From: Octopus vulgaris | Lineage: Eukaryota | NCBI GenBank assembly: GCA_951406725.2 | Contig: OX597840.1 | Coordinates: forward strand, 23,622,001-23,686,000 | Direction of reading: 5' to 3' | DNA: 64,000 bases | Part shown: one piece after another, positions 8,678 through 64,000 of the stretch | Numbering within the stretch: position 1 is the stretch's first letter | Layout of the letters: each line of letters opens with the position of its first letter | Program-made: the position numbers and the translations under genes | Notes under the pieces: model-generated | Databases searched by the model: none | Told to the model about the DNA's origin: nothing | What the model saw: only the letters and a program-made list of their open reading frames with translations

Positions 8678-9830
8678 TTATGTCTTCTCTACTGTATGTG
8701 TATGTGTGTGTCTATTCAACTGATGCCTTTGAGAAAATGACTCACCACAGATATCACAATGACAAGGTTTCTCACGAGTATGAATGCAATTGTAAGTAAC
8801 CAAATGACTATTACGAGAGAATGATTTACCACAATTATCACACTGATAAGGTTTCTCACCAGTATGAATGCGATTGTGAATAACCAATTGACTATTATGA
8901 GAGAATGATTTACCACAGATATCACAATGATAAGGTTTCTCACCAGTATGAATCTTCTTATGGTTAGTTAAAACTTTACGTTCACAAAATGATTTACCAC
9001 AAATATCACAATGATAAGGTTTCTCTCCTGTATGAATGTGTTTGTGATTAGTCAACTGCCTATTACAAGAGAATGATTTGGCACAGATATCAAAATGATA
9101 GGGTTTCTCTCTGCTTATGTTTAGTTAAAACGTTCTTTTTAGAGAATGATTTACCACAGATATCGCAATGATATGGTCTTTCTCCTGTATGAACACGTTT
9201 GTGCTTAGTCAATTGACTCTTAGAAGGGAATAACTTACCACAAATATCACAATGATATGGCTTCTCTCCTGTATGAGTAAGTTTGTGCCTAGTCAAGTGG
9301 TTACTTAGAGAGAATGATTTACCACAGATATCGCAATGATATGGTCTCTCTCCTGTATGAATGCGATTGTGATCAACCAAATTACTATTATGAGAGAATG
9401 ATTTACCACAGATATGACAATGATATGGTTTCTCTCCTGTATGTGTAAGTTTGTGGCTACTCAACTGACTACATTGTGAGAATGATTTACCACAGATATC
9501 GCAAAGATATGGCCTCTCTCCTGTATGAATGCGATTGTGAGTAACCAAACTACTATTACGAGAGAATGATTTACCACAGATCTCACAATGATATGGTTTC
9601 TCTCCTGTATGTGTACGTATGTGATCAGTCAAGTGAGTGCTTCCAGAGAATGATTTACCACAGATCTCACAATAATATTGCTTCTCTCCCGTATGTGTAC
9701 GTTTGTGTTTAACATCGTCACTACTGTAAGAAAATGATTTTCCACAGATATTCCAGTGATATGGCTTTTCTTCTTTATCAAGATTTTCTGATTCAGTTAA
9801 ATTATTCATTTTGAGAGAATTACTTATCAT
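8678..9830 (-). pseudogene. C2H2 zinc-finger gene (ZNF-A), frameshifted near 9105-9115: 6 intact fingers before the shift, about 5 partly decayed fingers after it (truncated gene or pseudogene)
   Basis: ORFs 9839-9090 and 9055-8678 are in different frames; linker deletion (CATAAG-CAGAGAGAAACCC); acceptor at 10105, donor at 12630. Confidence 0.82.
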
Positions 9831-11442
9831 ACACTTCACAATGATAAAGTGTTTTTCATTTCCATGAATATATTTCTGTTCACTTTTGTCACTTCATTCA
9901 GATAACAATTTAATGCAATGTTTCTTCCATATATTCCACAGAATGAAAAATATTCCGCTGTCTCTTGTTATAGACTGTATTTATATACAGAGGTAGACTT
10001 ATTCATGAATGCTCCTTACAAATATACTGTCTTCCTTTAGGTGATGAGAATATCAAAGACACTTCTGAATGGAGAGATTTCCTTAACGTCAAATGTTGTG
10101 ATATTCTGAAATAGGAAAAGAGGCAGTAAGACAAAACTGGATAGTTGACCAACATAAGTAATTAAAGATTGCAGATTTTATATCACTACCATTGTCATGC
10201 ATTTACTGTCCATGCTTGCATAAGTAGATTGAGTTGGAAGGTGTTAGAAGCTAATGGGAATGGAGCTAGCCAAAACGAAAATATAGTGGGCATAACAGAA
10301 TAGTGAGTTGATGCCATCCAGAATTTCACAGAGCAAAGTTGCCACAAGTGAAATGGGCTGTTTATGAAGTGATCAGAGTTAATGATAAAGAAGCATTGTT
10401 ACTCGTCTGCCGCCTTTCCGCAAACTAATTAAAACTCCCACTTCTCTTCATGGATACTGAATTGCCCTCTAGGATCCATACGTGCCCACCCTGAAGGGCT
10501 GGAGAATGTCATAGCAGAACAGTGCTATGGTGTGACAACTAAAATAGCTTGCTACAATATTAAATACTGGCAGAATCTCTAAGATGCCGGATTAATTGCT
10601 TAACAGCATTTCGTTCGTAAATAGCTTTGTCAAACTAGAGATAAAAGCAATCAGGAATGGGAGTGTGTCTGTGCATTGTTTATTTCTCTTCAATCAGGTA
10701 CACACTGTGAGGGCGAGTACGATCGATCATTTGAGCATCCAGATGCCCCTCCCACCTAACCACAATCCCTTCTCTGAACACCAGATTGCTAGCTAGCCCA
10801 CAGTGAAGGTCCCTCTTTATATTTCGTCTGTCATAAGTTGGTGCCCCAAACGTCTTTCCTTTCAAAGCATGACTTCCACTGAGGTCGACTTTCATCCTTT
10901 CGAAGTAAATAAAATAAGCAGTAGAGCACTCGAGTCCCTGAAATTAACTCGTCCCCTTTCTACAAATTTCAGGTTTTGTAATTAAAAATACAAAAAGAAA
11001 AATCATTATTATTATTATCATCAACATTAATATTTTATAAACCCCAAAAAGTAGAGTCGGCTCATGGAGCAAAATCCTGACTGCAAATACATCTTACAAT
11101 TTCATGAGTCCTTTATTAAAAAAAGGGACAATGGTAATTATTCTCCTTCCTCTCGCAGGTGTTACGACCACTCACGGAAACGGAGACACACGTCTTTGTG
11201 AGCAGAAGGATCTCCTCAGTAGAATCAATAGCTGCAAACCATCTGAACACCTCACAGGTTGTGTCCGGGTAGAATGGATATAATTCGCCTCTACTCATCT
11301 ATAGACAGAGATTTTCTTGTGGGGTGCTTGTAAAGACAAGAACATTACATACGTTGGTGAGACATCTAGAAGCATTGCAGGGGGATGAAATAAAAATTAG
11401 AGGCAGCATGACCACATAACCAGTCCTCCATACTCTACCAAA

Positions 11443-14277: not shown

Positions 14278-15304
14278 CGCCAAGATCCTCATGATCGTAA
14301 TAAAGATTCCATTTCATAGTAGTTCTCTAATTCTCTCATAGATGGCTCTACTGACTAGTGGGTTCCTTTCAGTTTCTCTCTTAGTTTCATTCTGTTAATA
14401 TCTGTATTGTGTGTCAAGGCGCTCATTATTATTAATTAGACTAATTAGTTATCGGTCTGTGATTTGCTGTTTTTGTCTGAATACGGTAAGTTGACGATGA
14501 TGATAATAATACTACTAATAACAATGTAATTAATAGAATTCTGTGAACTTCTCGGTGTCACAGTAATTATTTCGAAGCGGAAACATAAAAAATTTAGGAA
14601 AATATATTTCCTCGTCTTAAATAATAACTTCCAAAGTGAAATGTTGGTTTGTTGTTTCTGAAAACCTATGGTCGACTGTTCACGAACGAAATGCTGTTAA
14701 GCAAATTCTGGATGGCATCAACTCACTACTCTGGTCATGTTATGCCCACTATATTTTCGTTTTGGCTAGCTCCATTCCCATTAGCTTCTAACACCTTCCA
14801 ACTCAATCTACTTATGCAAGCATGGACAGTAAATGCATGACAATGGTAGTGATATAAAATATGCAATGTTCAATTACTTATGTTGGTCAACTATCCAGTT
14901 TTATCTTACTGCTTCTTTTCCTATTTCAGAATATCACAACATGTTGACGTGAAGGAAATCTCTCCATTCAGAAGTGTCTTTGATATTCTCATCACCTAAA
15001 GGAAGACAGTATATTTATAAGGAGCATTCATGAATAAGTCTACCTCTGTATATAAATACAGTCTATAACAAGGAACAGCGGAATATTTTTCTTTCTCTGG
15101 AATGTGGAGGAGGTGATTGCTTTCCTGGTGAATTAAAGTTGGATAAATTTACAAAGGAGTTGACAATTTCCATCTGCTGTTTTAGATATCGAGTAAGATC
15201 GTGGATGGAAGAAAGATTGCATTAAATAATTCTCTGCATGAAGTGACACGACGGAACAAAAACATATTCATAGAAAGGAAAAACACATTATCTTTGTGAT
15301 ATGT

Positions 15305-15955
15305 ATGATAAGTAATTCTCTCATAATGAATAATTTAAGTAAACCAGAAATCCCCGACACAGAGGATAAGGTATATATTTGTAATATCTGTGGTAAATCC
15401 TTCCTTCAGTATCGTTACTTAACTTATCACCAACGTACACATACAGGAGAGAAGCCATATCACTGTGATATCTGTGGTAAATCATTCTCTTATAATTGTC
15501 ATTTGGTTACTCACAAACGCGTTCACACGGGAGAGAGACCCTATTATTGTGATATCTGTGGTAAATCATTCTGTGAACGTACAGTTTTGACGAAACATAA
15601 GAAGATTCATACTGGTGAAAAACCATATCAGTGTGATATCTGTGGTAAATCATACTCTCGTAATAGTCAATTGGTTAGTCACAATCGCACTCATACAGGA
15701 GAGAGACCATTTAATTGTGATATCTGTGGTAAATCATTCTGTGAACGTAAAGTTTTAACTAACCATAAGAAGATTCATACTGGTGATAAACCATATCATT
15801 GTGATATCTGTGGTAAATCATTCTCTCAGAGTGGTAGTGTCACTACACACAAACGTACACATACAGGAGAAAAACCTTATCATTGTTATATCTGTGGTAA
15901 ATCATTCTCTCAAGGAAATCACTTGACTAATCACAAACTTACACATACATGGTAG
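15305..15955 (+). CDS. C2H2 zinc-finger protein (ZNF-B): 7 fingers, truncated by a premature stop; decayed fingers follow to about 16730
   Basis: Same N-terminus ([11 protein letters not shown]) as the paralogs; linker mutated to HTW*; donor 14485|gtaagt, acceptor |14930. Confidence 0.8.
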   Translation: MISNSLIMNNLSKPEIPDTEDKVYICNICGKSFLQYRYLTYHQRTHTGEKPYHCDICGKSFSYNCHLVTHKRVHTGERPYYCDICGKSFCERTVLTKHKKIHTGEKPYQCDICGKSYSRNSQLVSHNRTHTGERPFNCDICGKSFCERKVLTNHKKIHTGDKPYHCDICGKSFSQSGSVTTHKRTHTGEKPYHCYICGKSFSQGNHLTNHKLTHTW

Positions 15956-16601
15956 AGACCATATCATTGTGATATCTGGTAAACCATTCTCTCAAAGTAG
16001 TGACTTGACTATCATTGGTAAATCATTCTCTCAAAAGAAACACTTGATTTTGCACAGTCGTATATATACACGAGAGAAGCCATATCTTTATGTTATCTGG
16101 TAAATCATTCTCTCAAAGGAGTCATTTGGCTTATCACAAACTTACACATAGGTGTAGGAGTGGCTGTGTGGTAAGCAGCTTGTTTACCAACTACATGGTT
16201 CCGGGTTCAGTCCCACTGCGTGGCACCTTGGGCAAGTGTCTTTTACTAGAGCCTCAGGCCAACCAAAGCCTTGTGAGTGGATTTGGTAGACGGAAACTGA
16301 AAGACGCCCATTGTATATATGTATATATATGTGTGTGTATATGTTTGTGTGTCTGTGTTTGTCCCACCAACATTAATTGACAACCGATGCTGGTGTGTTT
16401 ACGTCACCGTAACTTAGTGGTTCAGCAAAAGAGACCGATAGAATCAGTACTAGGCTTACAAAGAATAAGTCCTGGTGTCGATTTGCTCGACTAAAGGCGG
16501 TGCTCCAGAATGGCCACAGTCAAATGACTCAAACAAGTAAAAGAGTATTAGGGAGAGAAACCATATCAATGTAATTACTGTGCTAAATCATTTGCCCTTA
16601 A

Positions 16602-23638: not shown

Positions 23639-24949
<1,311 letters not shown>

Positions 24950-37080: not shown

Positions 37081-38047
37081 TATATCAGCTGACTCAGGGG
37101 ATATTATCATGATCTCTTGAGTCAAGTCTAGTCCCCAGTATAGCTCAAAAGTGCTTGTAAAGACGTTTCTCTATGCTGCAGTCCATCTAGATGTATATAG
37201 GTACCATAGGGAGGTAGAAGACATTGCTGTAAATAATAGGGGCATTGCTGTAAATAATAGTATAAATGATATTTTATGTTGTTAAACTGTCAGACAAGGG
37301 GAAATGGGATATTGTGATGTTCATGCCTTTCCATGTGACATTTGTAAAGTAAAGGAGAGTGAAATGATTTCAATTGAGAAACAAAATTGCGTTGAGTTTG
37401 AATTTTCTGTTGAGATTCTTTTTTTGTAATATAAGAATGTGTTTCATTAACTTACAATGCTGAGTTCAATCCAGCCATGAACACAATCAACAATGGGGCC
37501 TGTCTTCAATAAAGACAGGAAATATATTTTGACCTGGGACTAAAGAATTACAATAAATATAGAAAAACACAGATTGGCCAGGGGAGAGACGACATGTCCC
37601 ACACAATGCACACACCCATGTTAAAAAGTTTGCATTTGATAATGTGGTCCTCTTCACCCAAGAGAAAACATGATGGCACATCTGGAACCCTTTCCCCTTA
37701 ATTCTGCCAGATTAAGGGAGATATCTGCCTCAACCTACCAGTAAACTTACTAAAAGTGTAATCAAGCAAAAACATTGTCATTAATTCACCTGTTTACTCT
37801 TAAATGACAATATTTTTGAGTCCCCTTTTACAAATGACAGTATTAACTCTACTGTATCTCCTAATTTATACATTTTACAACTGTGCTGACGTCCGTAGAT
37901 ATTTTATGAAATTTCAGTGATAGCTTTACTGTATAGCTAAACTTTCAATTGGAAATTAGGAATGGAACCAGTTCTCAGTCATTCAAACAAACAAAAGTTT
38001 AGCTGAAAGCAAAATTTATAGAAATTAATTGGGTATTTTATACTCAC

Positions 38048-38119
38048 CAAGTTCCTGCTATTTACCTGCCAAGCTTCTGGACACCCAATGAAGATGCTTA
38101 TCCTCTAGCATTACAGAAT
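38048..38119 (-). CDS. Death-domain exon 1: DSVMLEDKHLHWVSRSLAGK*QEL(G), with an in-frame TAG at the conserved Trp position
   Basis: Acceptor atttatttcag|, donor G|gtgagt; 72 nt, phase 1 to 1; aligns to death-domain helix 1/2 (LGxDWxxLxRxLG); TAG = cta at 38058-38060. Confidence 0.8.
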
Positions 38120-39084
38120 CTGAAATAAATATTTCCAAATTTTACACTTCATAGCACAATTTCCCGATCTCTGTTAATGGTTTATATTTTATTATTGTAA
38201 GACATTCCTATCATCAATGGACAACTTCTGACCACTATAGGTTTGGTTAATAGATTTATATTTTCTACTGTGGTCTTATATAATGGCTCAATATTTAGGC
38301 CCATAGTAAAATAGTCTGACCTTCCTAAGCCTCCTTTTTCTATTAAGACATCCTACTTAATCTAACAATGTTGCAATCATCTCATTTAATTATCTTTTCT
38401 CTCTCTTATATCTGTGCTAAACCTATGACATGGCAGTGTCCCCTCACCACAGGACTTCACTAATCAACATTCCCCTCTTCTTTTGTTTAATTCTGATGTC
38501 AACCAAGCTGGTCATCAACGACCTTGACACAAACTCATGTCACACCTGTTATCTTTGTCAAACGTTGCTGCTTTTAATCTTTAATTTTAACTGTGCAACT
38601 CACAGTTCACCAGAATTTCATCTGATTCAGAAAATATCTAAAGACACCTTAATGAAATAGTTTCCTTTCCTGATGAGCAATGATTAGTTCTACACAGGTA
38701 AAACAGAAAGTGATAACAAGTATCCTAAAACTGTATACTTGCACAAAACATCTTAAATGAAACACAAATGTTCATACACTGATTATTGCAAAGGAAAAAT
38801 ATCTGAAATGGTATATAAGAAATGATATTCAAGAATATATAATCAAGGTGGTGATATAGATAACAATGAGATGAGAGAAAAGTGAATGTGTCTCATTATG
38901 GGGAGAGAATCACTTCAGGATTTATATTTTATCTTTTTTTCTATATTTTCCTTATCGTGAGGGACCTTTTTCCTGTGTCTCATGATTCCATATTTTGATA
39001 AAAATCCCTTTATTGTATATTCTTGCATTTGTAGGTAGTGAATAGAATTACTTTTATCACTAACCATTTGAAAGAAATGTAACA

Positions 39085-40230
39085 ATGGAACCTGTTCTCA
39101 GTCATTCACACAAATAATATATCTCAGGTGAAGGTAAAATTTATAGAAATCAATTACAGTTATTTTATACTCACCAACAGACTCTACAACCGTCTGGACT
39201 TCTTTCTCTTCAAACTTTGGACACACTGAAATAAGAATTGAAAATTAAGAATGGAACCTCTTCTCAGTCATTCACAAAAACAATATTTCTCAGGTGAAAG
39301 TAAAATTTATAGAAATCAATTACAGTTATTTTATACTCACCAACAGACTCTACAACCGTCTGGACTTCTTTCTCTTCAAACTTTGGACACACTGAAATAA
39401 GAATTGAAAATTAAGAATGGAACCTCTTCTCAGTCATTCACAAAAACAATATTTCTCAGGTGAAAGTAAAATTTATAGAAATCAATTACAGTTATTTTAT
39501 ACTCACCAACAGACTCTACAACCGTCTGGACTTCTTTCTCTTCAAACTTTGGACACACTGAAATAAGAATTGAAAATTAAGAATGGAACCTCTTCTCAGT
39601 CATTCACAAAAACAATATTTCTCAGGTGAAAGTAAAATTTATAGAAATCAATTACAGTTATTTTATACTCACCAATAGATTCTGAAACCGTCTGGACTGC
39701 TTTCTCTTCAGACTTTGGACACTCTGAAATAAGAATTGAAAATTAAGGATGGAACCTCTTCTCAGTCATTCACAAAAACAATATTTCTCAGGTGAAAGTA
39801 AAATTTATAGAAATCAATTACAGTTATTTTATACTCACCAATAGATTCTGAAACCGTCTGGACTGCTTTCTCTTCAGACTTTGGACACTCTGAAATAAGA
39901 ATTGAAAATTAAGAATGGAACCTCTTCTCAGTCATTCACAAAAACAATATTTCTCAGGTGAAAGTAAAATTTATAGAAATCAATTACAGTTATTTTATAC
40001 TCACCAATAGATTCTGAAACCGTCTGGACTGCTTTCTCTTCAGACTTTGGACACTCTGAAATAAGAATTGAAAATTAAGAATGGAACCTCTTCTCAGTCA
40101 TTCACAAAAACAATATTTCTCAGGTGAAAGTAAAATTTATAGAAATCAGTTACAGTTATTTTATACTCACCAACAGACTCTGCACCCACCTGGACTGCTT
40201 TCTCTTCAAACTTTGGACACACTGAAATAA
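39085..40230. repeat. 166-bp tandem repeat, about 7 copies (exon+intron unit), three sequence variants
   Basis: Exact 166-bp periodicity of the donor sites at 39175, 39341, 39507, 39673, 39839, 40005, 40171. Confidence 0.97.
39175..40221 (-). CDS. Seven 51-nt phase-1 microexons: 40171-40221 (VCPKFEEKAVQVGAESV); 40005-40055, 39839-39889, 39673-39723 (ECPKSEEKAVQTVSESI); 39507-39557, 39341-39391, 39175-39225 (VCPKFEEKEVQTVVESV)
   Basis: Each copy has acceptor ttatttcag| and donor G|gtgagta, no stop, and is in phase with the RING and death-domain exons; 115-nt introns. Confidence 0.8.
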
Positions 40231-41109
40231 GCATTTCAAAGTTTTATACTTCATAGTAAAATTTGTTTGTCTCTTTTAATAATCTATATTCCATTATTGT
40301 AAGGCATTCATATCATCAATAGTCAATTGGTGACCACTATGCTTTCAGTCAACACTTTCTAAGCTGTTACTGTATAATAGTAACAGCTGTATAATAGTAA
40401 CAGTAATATTTACAACCACAACAAAATAGGCAAACCTTTCTAAATCTCATCTTTCTCTTAAGACATCCTATATACTAATCTAACAATTCTGAAATTCTCT
40501 CATTCAGTTATCACTTCATAACACTCTTTTTCTCTTAGTTTTGTTGTTTCTTCTTATGTCTTTGCTGGACAAGTTTAACGCAAAATTTCACAGTGGTTAT
40601 TTGTTCCTGCTCATTAGAAAATTGCAGACTACAGCCTACAAATGACCACAAAAGCACAAATTTCATAACTTTTGAAGTAAATGCAGTGGTGTCACCCAGC
40701 ACACTGCCTCATGAAAGTCATTGCTAGCTCTCACTGTGCGTGCAACGATGTGCTGCCATCAGTTGGTATGCTACAGAACTAGTCCGTGAACTTTCTGATA
40801 CCACCTTGGAGCAATGACCAGGCTTCATGTTCGAATTAAAATGAATCAACTCAAAAGTAAAGCCAAAAGGTGAAAGAGTCAGAAAACAATGTCTTGTCTA
40901 GTATTAATCACATCTAAAAACTAACGAGTGTGAGTATAAAATGTCTAAAAACTAACGAGTGTGAGTATAAAATGGCAAACATTATAACAAGTGTTAATAA
41001 TATATAGTTACAAACAAGAAGTTGCATGTCTCCACTACAATATGAAGTGCATTATTCCATACCAGAAAGTTAATGAGACAACAGACGGATCAAGAAAGAA
41101 TGTTCTTAC

Positions 41110-41252
41110 CAAATCCACTTTTGCTGCGTATGTGTTGTTGACATATGAGGCATTGCTTAAATATCATTTGAGAACAGCAATTCTGACAAATAACAGTATG
41201 TTGACATGGATGGAGTGTGACAGTAGCCTTTTTCTCTTGACACCACCGACAC
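41110..41252 (-). CDS. C3HC4 RING finger exon CRWCQEKKATVTLHPCQHTVICQNCCSQMIFKQCLICQQHIRSKSGF
   Basis: Acceptor ttttgttccacag|, donor G|gtaaga; 143 nt, phase 2 to 1; all 8 Zn ligands present, with PCxH as in MIB/IAP-type RINGs. Confidence 0.92.
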
Positions 41253-42221: not shown

Positions 42222-42400
42222 AGTGATTGTAAAAATGTTTTTAATTTTTCTTTCAAATGTTGATTTTTTATGTAGTCCAATGGGGTCACTTTCTTCTTCT
42301 TATTACGATGGTATAAGCTGGCTCCTTGGCTGGCAAGATAACTCCCAACTACTATTCCAGAGAGCCTCCTATCCATGTCCAGTTGGAGCTCTTTGCAGCA
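42222..42400 (-). CDS. Exon CCKELQLDMDRRLSGIVVGSYLASQGASLYHRNKKKKVTPLDYIKNQHLKEKLKTFLQS (ankyrin C-cap, MIB-like)
   Basis: Acceptor tttcatcatttgtag|, donor CT|gtaagt; 179 nt, phase 0 to 2; YLAxxGAxLxxxN and TPLD pattern; not in ORF track. Confidence 0.88.
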
Positions 42401-44491: not shown

Positions 44492-44704
44492 CTCATCTAA
44501 AATGGGAATGGGTTCCACCTCAGAATGGAACATCTCTTTCTTTATTATGGAGAGGTGCAAACAATTATTGCCATCCTTGTCGACAGCATTCATATTTGCA
44601 CCATGTATAATAAGTTTATGGATTATTCCGAGGTGGGCCCTGGAGACGGCTTTCAGCAATGGTGTTATTTTCTTATGATTCCCAATATCCAGTTTCACTG
44701 AATC
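44492..44704 (-). CDS. Ankyrin exon DSVKLDIGNHKKITPLLKAVSRAHLGIIHKLIIHGANMNAVDKDGNNCLHLSIIKKEMFHSEVEPIPILDE
   Basis: Acceptor ttacttccgcaaag|, donor GAG|gtaagt; 213 nt, phase 0 to 0; resembles the last ankyrins of MIB proteins. Confidence 0.9.
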
Positions 44705-48800: not shown

Positions 48801-48837
48801 CTGGGCCAGCATCAACGATACCACACCATAATGTTGC
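48801..48837 (-). CDS. 37-nt exon (K)QHYGVVSLMLAQ completing an ankyrin repeat
   Basis: Acceptor ctctttgtataactttcag|, donor CAG|gttagt; bridges phase 2 to phase 0 exactly and supplies helix 2 after GDTPLHLAVQK. Confidence 0.82.
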
Positions 48838-51090: not shown

Positions 51091-51956
51091 TTTTGAACTG
51101 CCAGATGGAGAGGAGTGTCACCATCATTGTCCACTTTATTGGCATCGATGCCATTTTGTTGTAGGAGAAGTTTAGCTGTGTCTGTGTGTCCTTTCACACA
51201 GGCATGATGTAGAGGTGTCCAGCCACTGTTGGTCACCACCCTCACATCAGTGCCATTTTGTTGTAGGAGAAGTTTAGCTGTGTCTGTGTGTCCTTTCACA
51301 CAGGCATGATGTAGAGGTGTCCAACCACTGTTGGTCACCACCCTCACATCAGTGCCATTTTGTTGTAGGAGAAGTTTAGCTGTGTCTGTGTGTCCAGCCT
51401 GACAGGCAAGATGTAGAGGTGTCCAACCATCGTTGTCCACCACCCTCACATCAGTGCCATTTTGTTGTAGGAGAAGTTTAGCTGTGTCTGTGTGTCCATT
51501 CTGACAGGCAAGATGTAGAGGTGTCCAACCATCGTTGGTCACCACCCTCACATCAGTGCCATTTTGTTGTAGGAGAAGTTTAGCTGTGTCTGTGTGTCCA
51601 TTATACGAGGCAAGATGTAGAGGTGTCTGACCATATTTGGTCACCACCCTCACATCAGTGCCATTTTGTTGTAGAAGTTTAGCTGTGCCTGTGTGTCCAT
51701 TATATGAGGCAAGATGTAGAGGTGTCCAACCATCGTTGGTCACCACCCTCACATCAGTGCCATTTTGTTGTAGGAGAAGTTTAGCTGTGTCTGTGTGTCC
51801 ACGATAAGAGGCAAGATGTAGAGGTGCATGACCACTGTTGGTCACCACCCTCACATCAGTGCCATTTTGTTGTAGGAGAAGTTTAGCAGTGTCTGTGTGT
51901 CCATGAAGTGAGGCAATATGTAGAGGTGTCCAACCATCATTATTTGGCTGAGTGAC
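51091..51956 (-). CDS. Single exon with 8 full near-identical ankyrin repeats (102-bp, 34-aa unit; one 33-aa unit) plus the start of a ninth
   Basis: Acceptor atcttttttag|GTC, donor AA|gtaagt; 866 nt, phase 0 to 2; unit GxxPLHxAxxxGHTDTAKLLLQQNGTDVRVVxxx. Confidence 0.95.
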
Positions 51957-55453: not shown

Positions 55454-55610
55454 CTGCAAAATGTTATTTCCTTTGCTACTTAACAGGACTTTGACTACAT
55501 CTTCATAGTTCTTCCTCACAGCCCGATGTAGAGGTGTGTTGCCCCATGAGTTCTGCTTATTAACATTTGCTCCCCTGGAGACTAAGAAGGCCACAGCATC
55601 AATTTTACGG
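55454..55610 (-). CDS. Ankyrin exon (S)RKIDAVAFLVSRGANVNKQNSWGNTPLHRAVRKNYEDVVKVLLSSKGNNILQ
   Basis: Acceptor ttcttcctttcag|, donor CAG|gttagc; 157 nt, phase 2 to 0; GANVN and GNTPLH motifs. Confidence 0.9.
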
Positions 55611-58019: not shown

Positions 58020-59359
58020 TGATTTTTATATATACATTATTTATTTAACATGTTTCGGTTCTTGAAATGACGAACCTTATCAAAAAAAATTTATATATAA
58101 AAAAGATAGTTCATGCTATCAAATATAAAAAATTCATATATAATAAAAAATTCATATATAGTGGAGCGAGTCCATGCTATATGTTTAAAGAGTATGCAGT
58201 AGTAGTTCATAGTGGTGATATGCATTCAATATAAAAAATTCATGTTCTTGAAAAAGCGAGGAATTCATTTTAGGTTTTACCTTGTGTTCCAATGGGAGCA
58301 ACTGTGATGACTGTTGGTTGGTGTCTGTTCGAATAGTTCTGGTGAATCTTGTGAAATGTTTGGGTTTTATATCACCTGTTAGGTGGCTAGTCCAGCGGAA
58401 CGGGACGTCATCAAAGTTTTGACCAATCGTCTCATTAGGTGGCTAGTCCAGCAGAACGGGACGTCATCAATGTTTAGACCAATCAGAATCGGGTCTGACC
58501 CTTAGCTGTATCGTATGTGGAAACCGACCAAGCAGGGTGACAATAGATTGTCCACTGAGGTAATACATCAGTGGACAATCTATTCTCACAAAGGCAAAAT
58601 TGTCTTCTAAAATTACGGATGCAAAAGTAAAAAAATGTGGTAGATCGAACTGTGCAACATGTCCTAACCTATTGGAAGGATCTGAATTCTTCTTTAAAGA
58701 GGGACAGAAATTCAAGATCAAATCTAACTTTACTTGTGCCTCTGAAAACATAATTTATGTCATTAAATGCTCGGGCTGCCACCAAGACTACGTGGGTTCC
58801 ACGGGACTATCACTCAGGCGTAGATGCACACTGCATCGACAACAGATTGCATTCCCAGAATATAGAATGATACCTTTTAGTGAGCACATTGAGAAATGCG
58901 CAAAGCAACTACTGCCACAATTTTTAATCTTCCCATTTTACCAATGTGCTTTCGGATCATCAACACAAATGAGACTGAACAAGGAAACATTCTTCATTGA
59001 AAAGTACAAACCCAGACTCAACCATCCGAACATACTGACACAGAGAAATTAACAAGGGAAAGGAAAAAAATTTTTAAGCGATTATCTCCCTTACACCGGA
59101 AGAAATCACTCACTACCTCCCCTTATTTAGAAATCTCCTGAAAATAAACACAACGATAACTCCATGCAATATAAACATAACGTCACAAGAAATTTGAAAA
59201 GCTACACGCGAAACTGGTAATTTCTTTAAAAATTTTAAAATTATGTCATTTTAAGGAAAGGAAAAAGAATTTTTCCAATATTCTCCAGACATTTTGACAC
59301 AAATATATATATTTTTTAACATTTAAGCCTTCTGTCGTTTTTTCACACTTTACTATTTT

Positions 59360-61943: not shown

Positions 61944-62095
61944 CTATACACAGCATAATGTAATGCTGTCAGACCTTCTTTGTCACTCATGTCCATATTG
62001 GCTCCAGATTCTATCAAGAAGGCTATTAGACTTGTGCTGCCCTGTTCACAAGCTGCCATTAAGAAAGTTTTACTGTCAGAATCTATTTGGTTAAC
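61944..62095 (-). CDS. Ankyrin exon VNQIDSDSKTFLMAACEQGSTSLIAFLIESGANMDMSDKEGLTALHYAVY
   Basis: Acceptor tctttcttttcttcag|, donor AG|gtaagg; 152 nt, phase 0 to 2; GxTALHYA ankyrin motif; not in ORF track. Confidence 0.9.
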
Positions 62096-63938: not shown

Positions 63939-64000
63939 TTTATCAGGATTTTCTTTGATAAGTCGTTCAACATCTTCAAAGTCTCCATTCTGAATCTTGC
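63939..64000 (-). CDS. Partial exon KIQNGDFEDVERLIKENPDK (start of ankyrin region, MIB-like)
   Basis: Open frame ending at donor GATAAA|GTAAGT, phase 0; joins the next exon in frame. Confidence 0.75.

Follow-up and report, generated by a model that had tools for sequence, protein, structure and literature searches.

A tandem array of seven in-frame 51-nt exons, each a predicted weak LC8 site, in an octopus ankyrin–RING–death-domain gene

The array and its host gene

In the 64,000-nt stretch of Octopus vulgaris DNA analysed here (the window), a 166-nt tandem repeat (TRF period 166, 7.0 copies, 97%) sits between the RING exon and the death-domain (DD) exons of an octopus ankyrin–RING–DD gene, the flanking exons of which match the Pfam ankyrin, C3HC4 RING and Death families (Table 1). 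The original prediction described this repeat as seven 51-nt exons, in phase 1-1 and ordered A-B-B-B-C-C-C, and our reading of splice sites and open reading frames confirms it on the minus strand: each exon is preceded by TTTCAG and followed by GTGAGT, the six introns between them are 115 nt each, and in a script-built gene model the RING exon, the seven units and DD exon 1 join without a frame shift. The encoded peptides are CPKFEEKAVQVGAESV (A), CPKSEEKAVQTVSESI (B, three copies) and CPKFEEKEVQTVVESV (C, three copies), each with a single Cys and with Q at the anchor. The B copies are mutually identical, as are the C copies, and the exact unit count at the locus is read from one assembly. The proposed concentration of B-versus-C change in the exons also held up, since seven of the seven (or of eight) differences are exonic while the exon makes up 31% of the unit (binomial p 0.0003 or 0.0015, against an even spread), with 0–1 intron positions differing between a B and a C unit; likewise, most of the exon substitutions (6/7) alter the protein.

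The units are not non-coding satellite DNA, as they are spliced in frame in paralog models and in contig joints (at the level of the family). Neural microexons form a class of 3–27 nt with tissue-specific inclusion, and the 51-nt units fall outside it by their length.

Table 1. Features of the array and its host gene (positions in the window)
Feature	Position	Strand	Remark
First coding exon	63939..64000	-	ATG 22 nt past window end (L086)
Second coding exon	61944..62095	-	Donor at 61944 or 61950
Ankyrin exon	55454..55610	-	Gene model
Ankyrin tandem exon, 8 repeats of 102 nt	51091..51956	-	Constant framework, variable surface positions
Small coding exon between ankyrin exons	48801..48837	-	Gene model
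Ankyrin exon	44492..44704	-	Pfam and gene model
Exon between last ankyrin repeats and RING	42222..42400	-	Joints in contigs
RING (C3HC4) exon	41110..41252	-	Pfam zf-C3HC4_3, E 2e-9
Intron upstream of array	40222..40512	-	Homologous to intron upstream of DD exon 1 (38120-38394)
Linker exon A, 51 nt, phase 1-1	40171..40221	-	Core EKAVQVG; identical to first unit of paralog L017
Linker exon B1	40005..40055	-	Core EKAVQTV
Linker exon B2	39839..39889	-	B-type copy
Linker exon B3	39673..39723	-	B-type copy
Linker exon C1	39507..39557	-	Core EKEVQTV
Linker exon C2	39341..39391	-	C-type copy
Linker exon C3	39175..39225	-	C-type copy
Intron downstream of array	39037..39174	-	Homologous to intron downstream of DD exon 1 (37916-38047)
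DD exon 1, 72 nt, phase 1-1	38048..38119	-	In-frame TAG at 38060-38058
DD exon 2 to stop codon	34322..34539	-	Pfam Death, E 2.8e-7

In a script model covering the window and the next stretch, the reading frame extends uninterrupted over 749 codons, taking in the ankyrin exons, the RING and the entire array, and then meets a TAG in DD exon 1 that the original prediction had overlooked. Close paralogs read TGG at this site, and a stop is present in only 2 of the 51 DD-exon-1 copies examined. The last RING knuckle of the window gene reads CLICQ, compared with CPICR in 13/20 and CKTCI in 6/20; we take the Pro and Arg of CPICR to bear on ubiquitin-ligase activity. The window gene copy therefore looks damaged, with its death domain lost as assembled. 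For this reason, the suggestion that the array serves as a spacer or dimerisation dial between RING and death domain does not apply to the window copy as assembled, which is truncated at the start of the death domain and altered at the end of the RING. A premature stop near the last exon junction may escape decay and, because only 10 nt separate the end of the TAG from the predicted junction with the putative last exon, this could hold for the transcript of the window gene.

The tandem ankyrin exon of the window gene carries eight repeats that vary at the turn and first-helix positions, those randomised in DARPins, with pN 0.153 versus pS 0.054 among six internal repeats, a contrast that a 3-nt deletion in one of them slightly exaggerates. 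The ancestry of the gene appears mosaic: the part of the first exon within the window is 100% like P0002, the later ankyrin exons are about 90–95% like P0006/P0007, unit A is the same as in L017, and L036-L038 match the region of DD exon 1 at 98%. The gene adjoins three C2H2 zinc-finger arrays with an 84-nt period, at 8685-9893 (-), where the frame changes near position 9100, 15242-16122 (+) and 23639-24946 (+). Its introns are filled with several LINE-like fragments, and an open frame at 58564-59049 (+) presumably resembles the GIY-YIG endonuclease of a Penelope-like element. About 33 kb past the window end lies an inverted paralogous ankyrin exon (L089:4191-4436, C27 about 23.719 Mb, + strand), around which the search gave no close match to the RING.

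The gene family and the origin of the unit

With 40 of 244 candidates scored, the unit has at least 142 genomic matches, those outside the window all on contig C29, and DD exon 2 matches at least 102 places (150 of 158 scored). Among the matches listed, the window copy is the only member of its subfamily found off C29. Across the window and 30 fetched loci, 100 units were called in 27 regions, with one to eight units per region and two arrays in one of them. Seventy-six units are 51 nt long, 17 are 36 nt long and seven break the frame; 93 of the 100 keep it, and a stop occurs in none of the 76 of 51 nt. The expectation that unit number would vary among paralogs was thus borne out, with a range of one to eight in close relatives. 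Single units of 26, 35, 49, 52 or 53 nt, several of them in A-runs, reflect either real decay or assembly errors, as may the first units of L022, L032 and L014, in which the acceptor is broken (AT, AA) or the donor deleted. In L013-L040, 34 of the 100 units start with CxxC (CPRC, CPKC, CSKC), and pairs of such units could bind zinc.

The closest named proteins come from O. vulgaris and O. sinensis, and a representative-protein search returned mostly generic ankyrin proteins, with 16 RING-bearing matches of less than 900 aa. NCBI models place the units in series and in frame, with two to six of them in, for example, P0009 and P0017. Joints from RING to unit, from unit to unit and from DD exon 1 to DD exon 2 also occur in contigs of four runs presumed to be RNA, at 90% likeness and hence at the level of the family; the run search gave no carrier that is recorded as RNA. 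Tuning by alternative splicing, which had been put forward together with copy-number change, is supported in part and for the family as a whole: the six NCBI isoform models of one paralog (LOC115225502, O. sinensis) contain one to three units in differing combinations, and one O. vulgaris NCBI model skips every unit, with the proviso that short-read isoform models in a tandem repeat may be mis-mapped. In the literature outside subscription journals, we found neither this family nor a layout of one motif per exon described.

The introns on either side of the array point to the source of the unit. The upstream array intron aligns with the intron upstream of DD exon 1 at 78% over 271 nt (score 155 versus a maximum of 35 in 300 shuffles), the downstream array intron with the one downstream of DD exon 1 at 83% over 130 nt (score 106 versus a shuffle maximum of 28), and the internal array intron aligns at 86% over 101 nt, likewise far above the shuffles. 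Because the unit and DD exon 1 have these intron flanks in common, the unit is likely a shortened duplicate of DD exon 1, the direction of duplication following from the death domain being taken as the older fold. In paralog P0017, the Pfam Death match begins in DD exon 1, which also forms the first helix of the predicted model; in some paralogs, the start of this exon (TPKLEEKCLQDVAK) aligns with the unit (CPKFEEKAVQTVAE). A derivation from the end of the RING exon, considered for its CPxC resemblance, was rejected, as the RING donor intron scores 20, which is at shuffle level.

In the 166-nt unit, the 51-nt exon is accompanied by 10 nt of acceptor sequence and by some 105 nt of the intron on its donor side, and a TTAAT resembling a branch point lies at -23, so that a complete intron is delivered with every duplication. 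In ten paralogs (L015-L018, L020, L021, L027, L031, L039 and L064), the working DD exon 1 is preceded by a second copy that is full-length (72 nt) but degenerate, which implies that this exon was duplicated more than once. A tree of the flanks places the type of the window beside the DKASQTE type (91/86, not starred) and leaves the backbone unresolved; the link label needs four changes on it, and a single origin is neither shown nor excluded.

LC8-type motifs in the exon class and in the subfamily of the window

Forty more distant loci carry the same flanks around exons of 51, 57, 72 and 78 nt; their cores include DRCVQTE, DKETQTQ, DKGVQTD, DKASQTE and DNEVQTE. A false exon call (L046) and one unrelated 66-nt type (of 15 types) were left out of the counts. 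Among the 14 exon types, which have a mean nucleotide identity of 57%, 13 retain the Q and 11 the T, and the Q/T anchor codons have a pN/pS of 0.21, versus 1.15 and 0.90 at the flanking codons (pairwise counts, not tree-corrected). When published rules for LC8 motifs are applied as patterns, the [TVIS]Q[TV] anchor is found in 34 of 47 distinct distant exons (18 of the 47 being one type), and the full [DST][KR]x-anchor-[DEP] pattern in 20 of the 47 versus none of 31 DD exon 1 sequences. The core DKGVQT is identical to that of ZFPM1, a validated LC8 binder, and SON and MAST1 bind LC8 via VQT anchors (Table 2 of PMC6607443); VQT is also named as an LC8 anchor in the available text of PMC12017986. 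An interim reading, by which the varying anchor refuted LC8, was withdrawn after the distant paralogs had revealed canonical motifs. The retention of the Q–T anchor in distant types, together with the canonical sites, supports the LC8 reading for the family, and we are fairly confident that the exon class, in its canonical types, probably encodes an LC8 site.

The octopus genome encodes an LC8 of 89 residues (L043:1489-1758). A 2:2 model of this protein with residues 594–630 of P0001, which contain the EKAVQTV unit of a paralog, scores 0.77 versus 0.33 for the best of three controls; at least 91% of contacts are common to the runs, the pLDDT of the partner is at least 52, and the model puts Q614 against LC8 residues 35–36 and 62–65. 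In the calibration of the complex score, done on microbial pairs and without peptides, 51 of 78 solved pairs and 2 of 108 mismatched ones attained the mark, and LC8–peptide complexes have already been solved (22 LC8-type sequences are listed), so the score may be memorised and is to be read as likeness, not binding. The structure prediction suggested as a check thus gave a groove placement for a unit of a paralog rather than of the window. In the model of P0017, linker residues 183–260 mostly have a pLDDT below 50 and are therefore predicted to be disordered.

According to section 9 of PMC6607443, LC8 sites have a polar residue at -4 and a large basic one at -3, prefer D, E or P at +2 and poorly accommodate a hydrophobic residue there. 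All seven window units carry the [TVI]-Q-[TV] anchor, with E and K at -4 and -3. The caution about position +2 that accompanied the original prediction was justified: it is V in six of the window units and G in one, and none of 49 distinct exons of the subfamily has D, E or P there, versus 23 of 47 distant ones. The assignment of an LC8-type motif to each exon stands for the seven window units, and conserved motifs occur in distant paralogs, but K-x-[TVI]-Q-[TV] is found in only 26 of the 100 subfamily units, from 12 of the 27 regions and with D, E or P at +2 in none of the 26. K replaces Q at the anchor in 28 of the 76 units of 51 nt, the 17 units of 36 nt have no motif, and an anchor pN/pS of 1.11 within the subfamily indicates no purifying selection on the anchor codons. 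Moreover, the four QTV peptides in PMC6607443 (from SH3RF2, QSER1, DAZL and EIF3C) were all non-binders of LC8 by ITC, and the DAZL peptide RSIQTVV is close to unit C. Given the unfavoured +2 position and the non-binding QTV peptides, single units of the window type are likely weak at best as LC8 sites. A multivalent context is, however, a known source of missed LC8 binders, as stated in the available text of PMC12057147, and we lean slightly towards the window array being a weak, multiplied version of the LC8 exon class that still works through LC8.

Exon diversity in the subfamily is about 2.5 times that of the introns of the same units (pi 0.144 versus 0.057, from 70 of the 76 units, which yield 64 distinct haplotypes of exon plus intron, the introns of the other six not being alignable without gaps) and three times that of the RING exon (0.045, nine distinct sequences). 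Whole-exon pN/pS is 1.14–1.15; pS of the exons is also raised, at 0.14, which fits a combination of homogenised introns and retained old exon variants. Position 0 of the anchor takes only Q or K, with K in three exon types, one of which lies in an A-run where slippage is possible. Taken together, the exon/intron asymmetry and the restriction to Q or K suggest tuning rather than mere decay.

Interpretation and comparison with known systems

The explanation that we marginally favour is that the seven in-frame exons, likely descended from a DD exon, each encode a predicted weak LC8 site in a predicted disordered linker, where LC8 dimers would zip two ankyrin–RING chains together; with one predicted site per unit, the number of units included would set how tightly the two chains are zipped. 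In such a course of events, a segment of at least 0.5 kb holding DD exon 1 would have been duplicated and the spare copy shortened, turning the start of helix 1 (KLEEKCLQDV) into an LC8 motif (KxEDKxVQT). In the subfamily of the window, the 166-nt unit would then have become self-propagating via unequal crossover. Copy number, exon skipping and Q-to-K units acting as silent spacers could together determine valency, and the weak, evenly spaced sites may bind cooperatively, as in KANK1. In the window copy, the stop would remove the death domain, leaving either a product made of ankyrin repeats, RING and seven sites or a copy in decay. A bolder version, which we consider unlikely, would have about a hundred ankyrin–RING–DD sensors turn a spare DD exon into an LC8 motif that serves as a digital valency code, with one site per skippable exon, a Q-to-K off-switch, a self-propagating 166-nt unit, selection-kept exon variants and homogenised introns; the window copy would then be a DD-less, RING-impaired seven-site member that pairs with its relatives and dampens them.

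It is possible, if somewhat doubtful, that LC8 binding is ancestral and has lapsed in the subfamily, in which case the units would be neutral or length-only spacers spread via unequal crossover, and the window copy a young pseudogene. The pN/pS values above 1 for anchor and whole exon, the 28 units with K for Q, the motif-less 36-nt units and the stop and altered RING end in the sole subfamily copy found off C29 (among the matches listed) would all be expected on this account, and the conserved EEK codons could act as a purine-rich enhancer of splicing. The non-binding of QTV peptides (PMC6607443, as above) points the same way. Drift alone, however, is insufficient for exons that exceed both their introns and the RING exon in diversity, and the frame kept in 93 of 100 units, the lack of stops in the 76 units of 51 nt, the limitation of position 0 to Q or K and the otherwise intact frame of 749 codons in the window likewise argue against a lapse.

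Instead of binding LC8, the units might imitate DD helix 1 as decoys, provide lysines for self-ubiquitination (through the Q-to-K units) or pair up as CxxC zinc knuckles; such roles appear improbable to us. Descent from a DD helix-1 exon, the change to K in three exon types as the sole one at its position and the CxxC start of 34 units are in keeping with them, but the units lack the Leu residues at -1 and +6 that 9/9 DD types conserve in DD exon 1, AlphaFold leaves them unstructured, and those of the window have one Cys each and Q throughout. That the units are real while their count of seven was inflated or collapsed by assembly and the TAG is a sequencing error is highly improbable: the identity of the B and of the C copies in one assembly would suit such an artefact, but paralog arrays of five to eight mutually distinct units indicate that arrays of this size are real, and the ordered A/B/C blocks fit unequal crossover.

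If LC8 binding by the favoured zipper-like array holds, the family documents a route from a fragment of a folded domain to a short linear motif and offers a natural series of zero to eight graded sites at a fixed 17-residue spacing, which would allow a direct test of valency and site strength in LC8 cooperativity. The octopus gene family is also large and varies in its ankyrin surfaces, and the window adds to it a compact self-propagating unit, a weak Q/K-toggling subfamily, the excess of exon over intron diversity and a damaged copy. For the window copy itself the stakes are lower, given the stop before its death domain.

NCBI labels many family members as MIB1/2-like, and they do resemble MIB1/MIB2 in having ankyrin repeats followed by a C3HC4 RING; residues 3–124 of P0005 align to 245–377 of MIB1 (8v0e), and a search of solved structures with P0005 gave ankyrin matches only. 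MIB1 and MIB2, however, have two or three C-terminal RINGs, whereas the octopus genes have a single RING and a C-terminal death domain and do not have MIB/HERC2, ZZ or REP domains. None of the MZM/REP-type Pfam families is listed among P0001-P0052, and the gene model of the window starts with ankyrin exons. Judged by its domain content, the window gene is no true Mind bomb gene.

In Dscam-type arrays, tandemly duplicated exons diversify the protein through splicing, as they may here. Dscam, however, uses one exon per transcript, whereas the octopus units stand in series in gene models and change in number.

Arrays of LC8 motifs provide the closest parallels. In ASCIZ/ATMIN and Nup159, 5–11 motifs in a disordered region duplex two chains, and SQT and VQT anchors contribute in human ASCIZ, as reported in the available text of PMC5963919; unlike these motifs, as described there, the octopus ones are flanked by a RING and a death domain, and they likely derive from a domain fragment. 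Among multivalent LC8 clients, the literature outside subscription journals yielded no other layout with one motif per exon. In linker L2 of KANK1, evenly spaced weak LC8 sites fail as peptides and bind cooperatively as an array, according to the accessible portion of 10.1101/2025.07.16.665182. As far as that portion describes KANK1, the octopus array resembles it in its many weak predicted sites, its short and even spacing and its position in a disordered linker of an ankyrin-repeat protein, and differs in that each site is a symmetric exon of its own, paralogs differ in copy number and binding is no more than a prediction. By this analogy, the octopus array, as a candidate rather than an established member of the group, would work like the arrays of KANK1, ASCIZ and Nup159.
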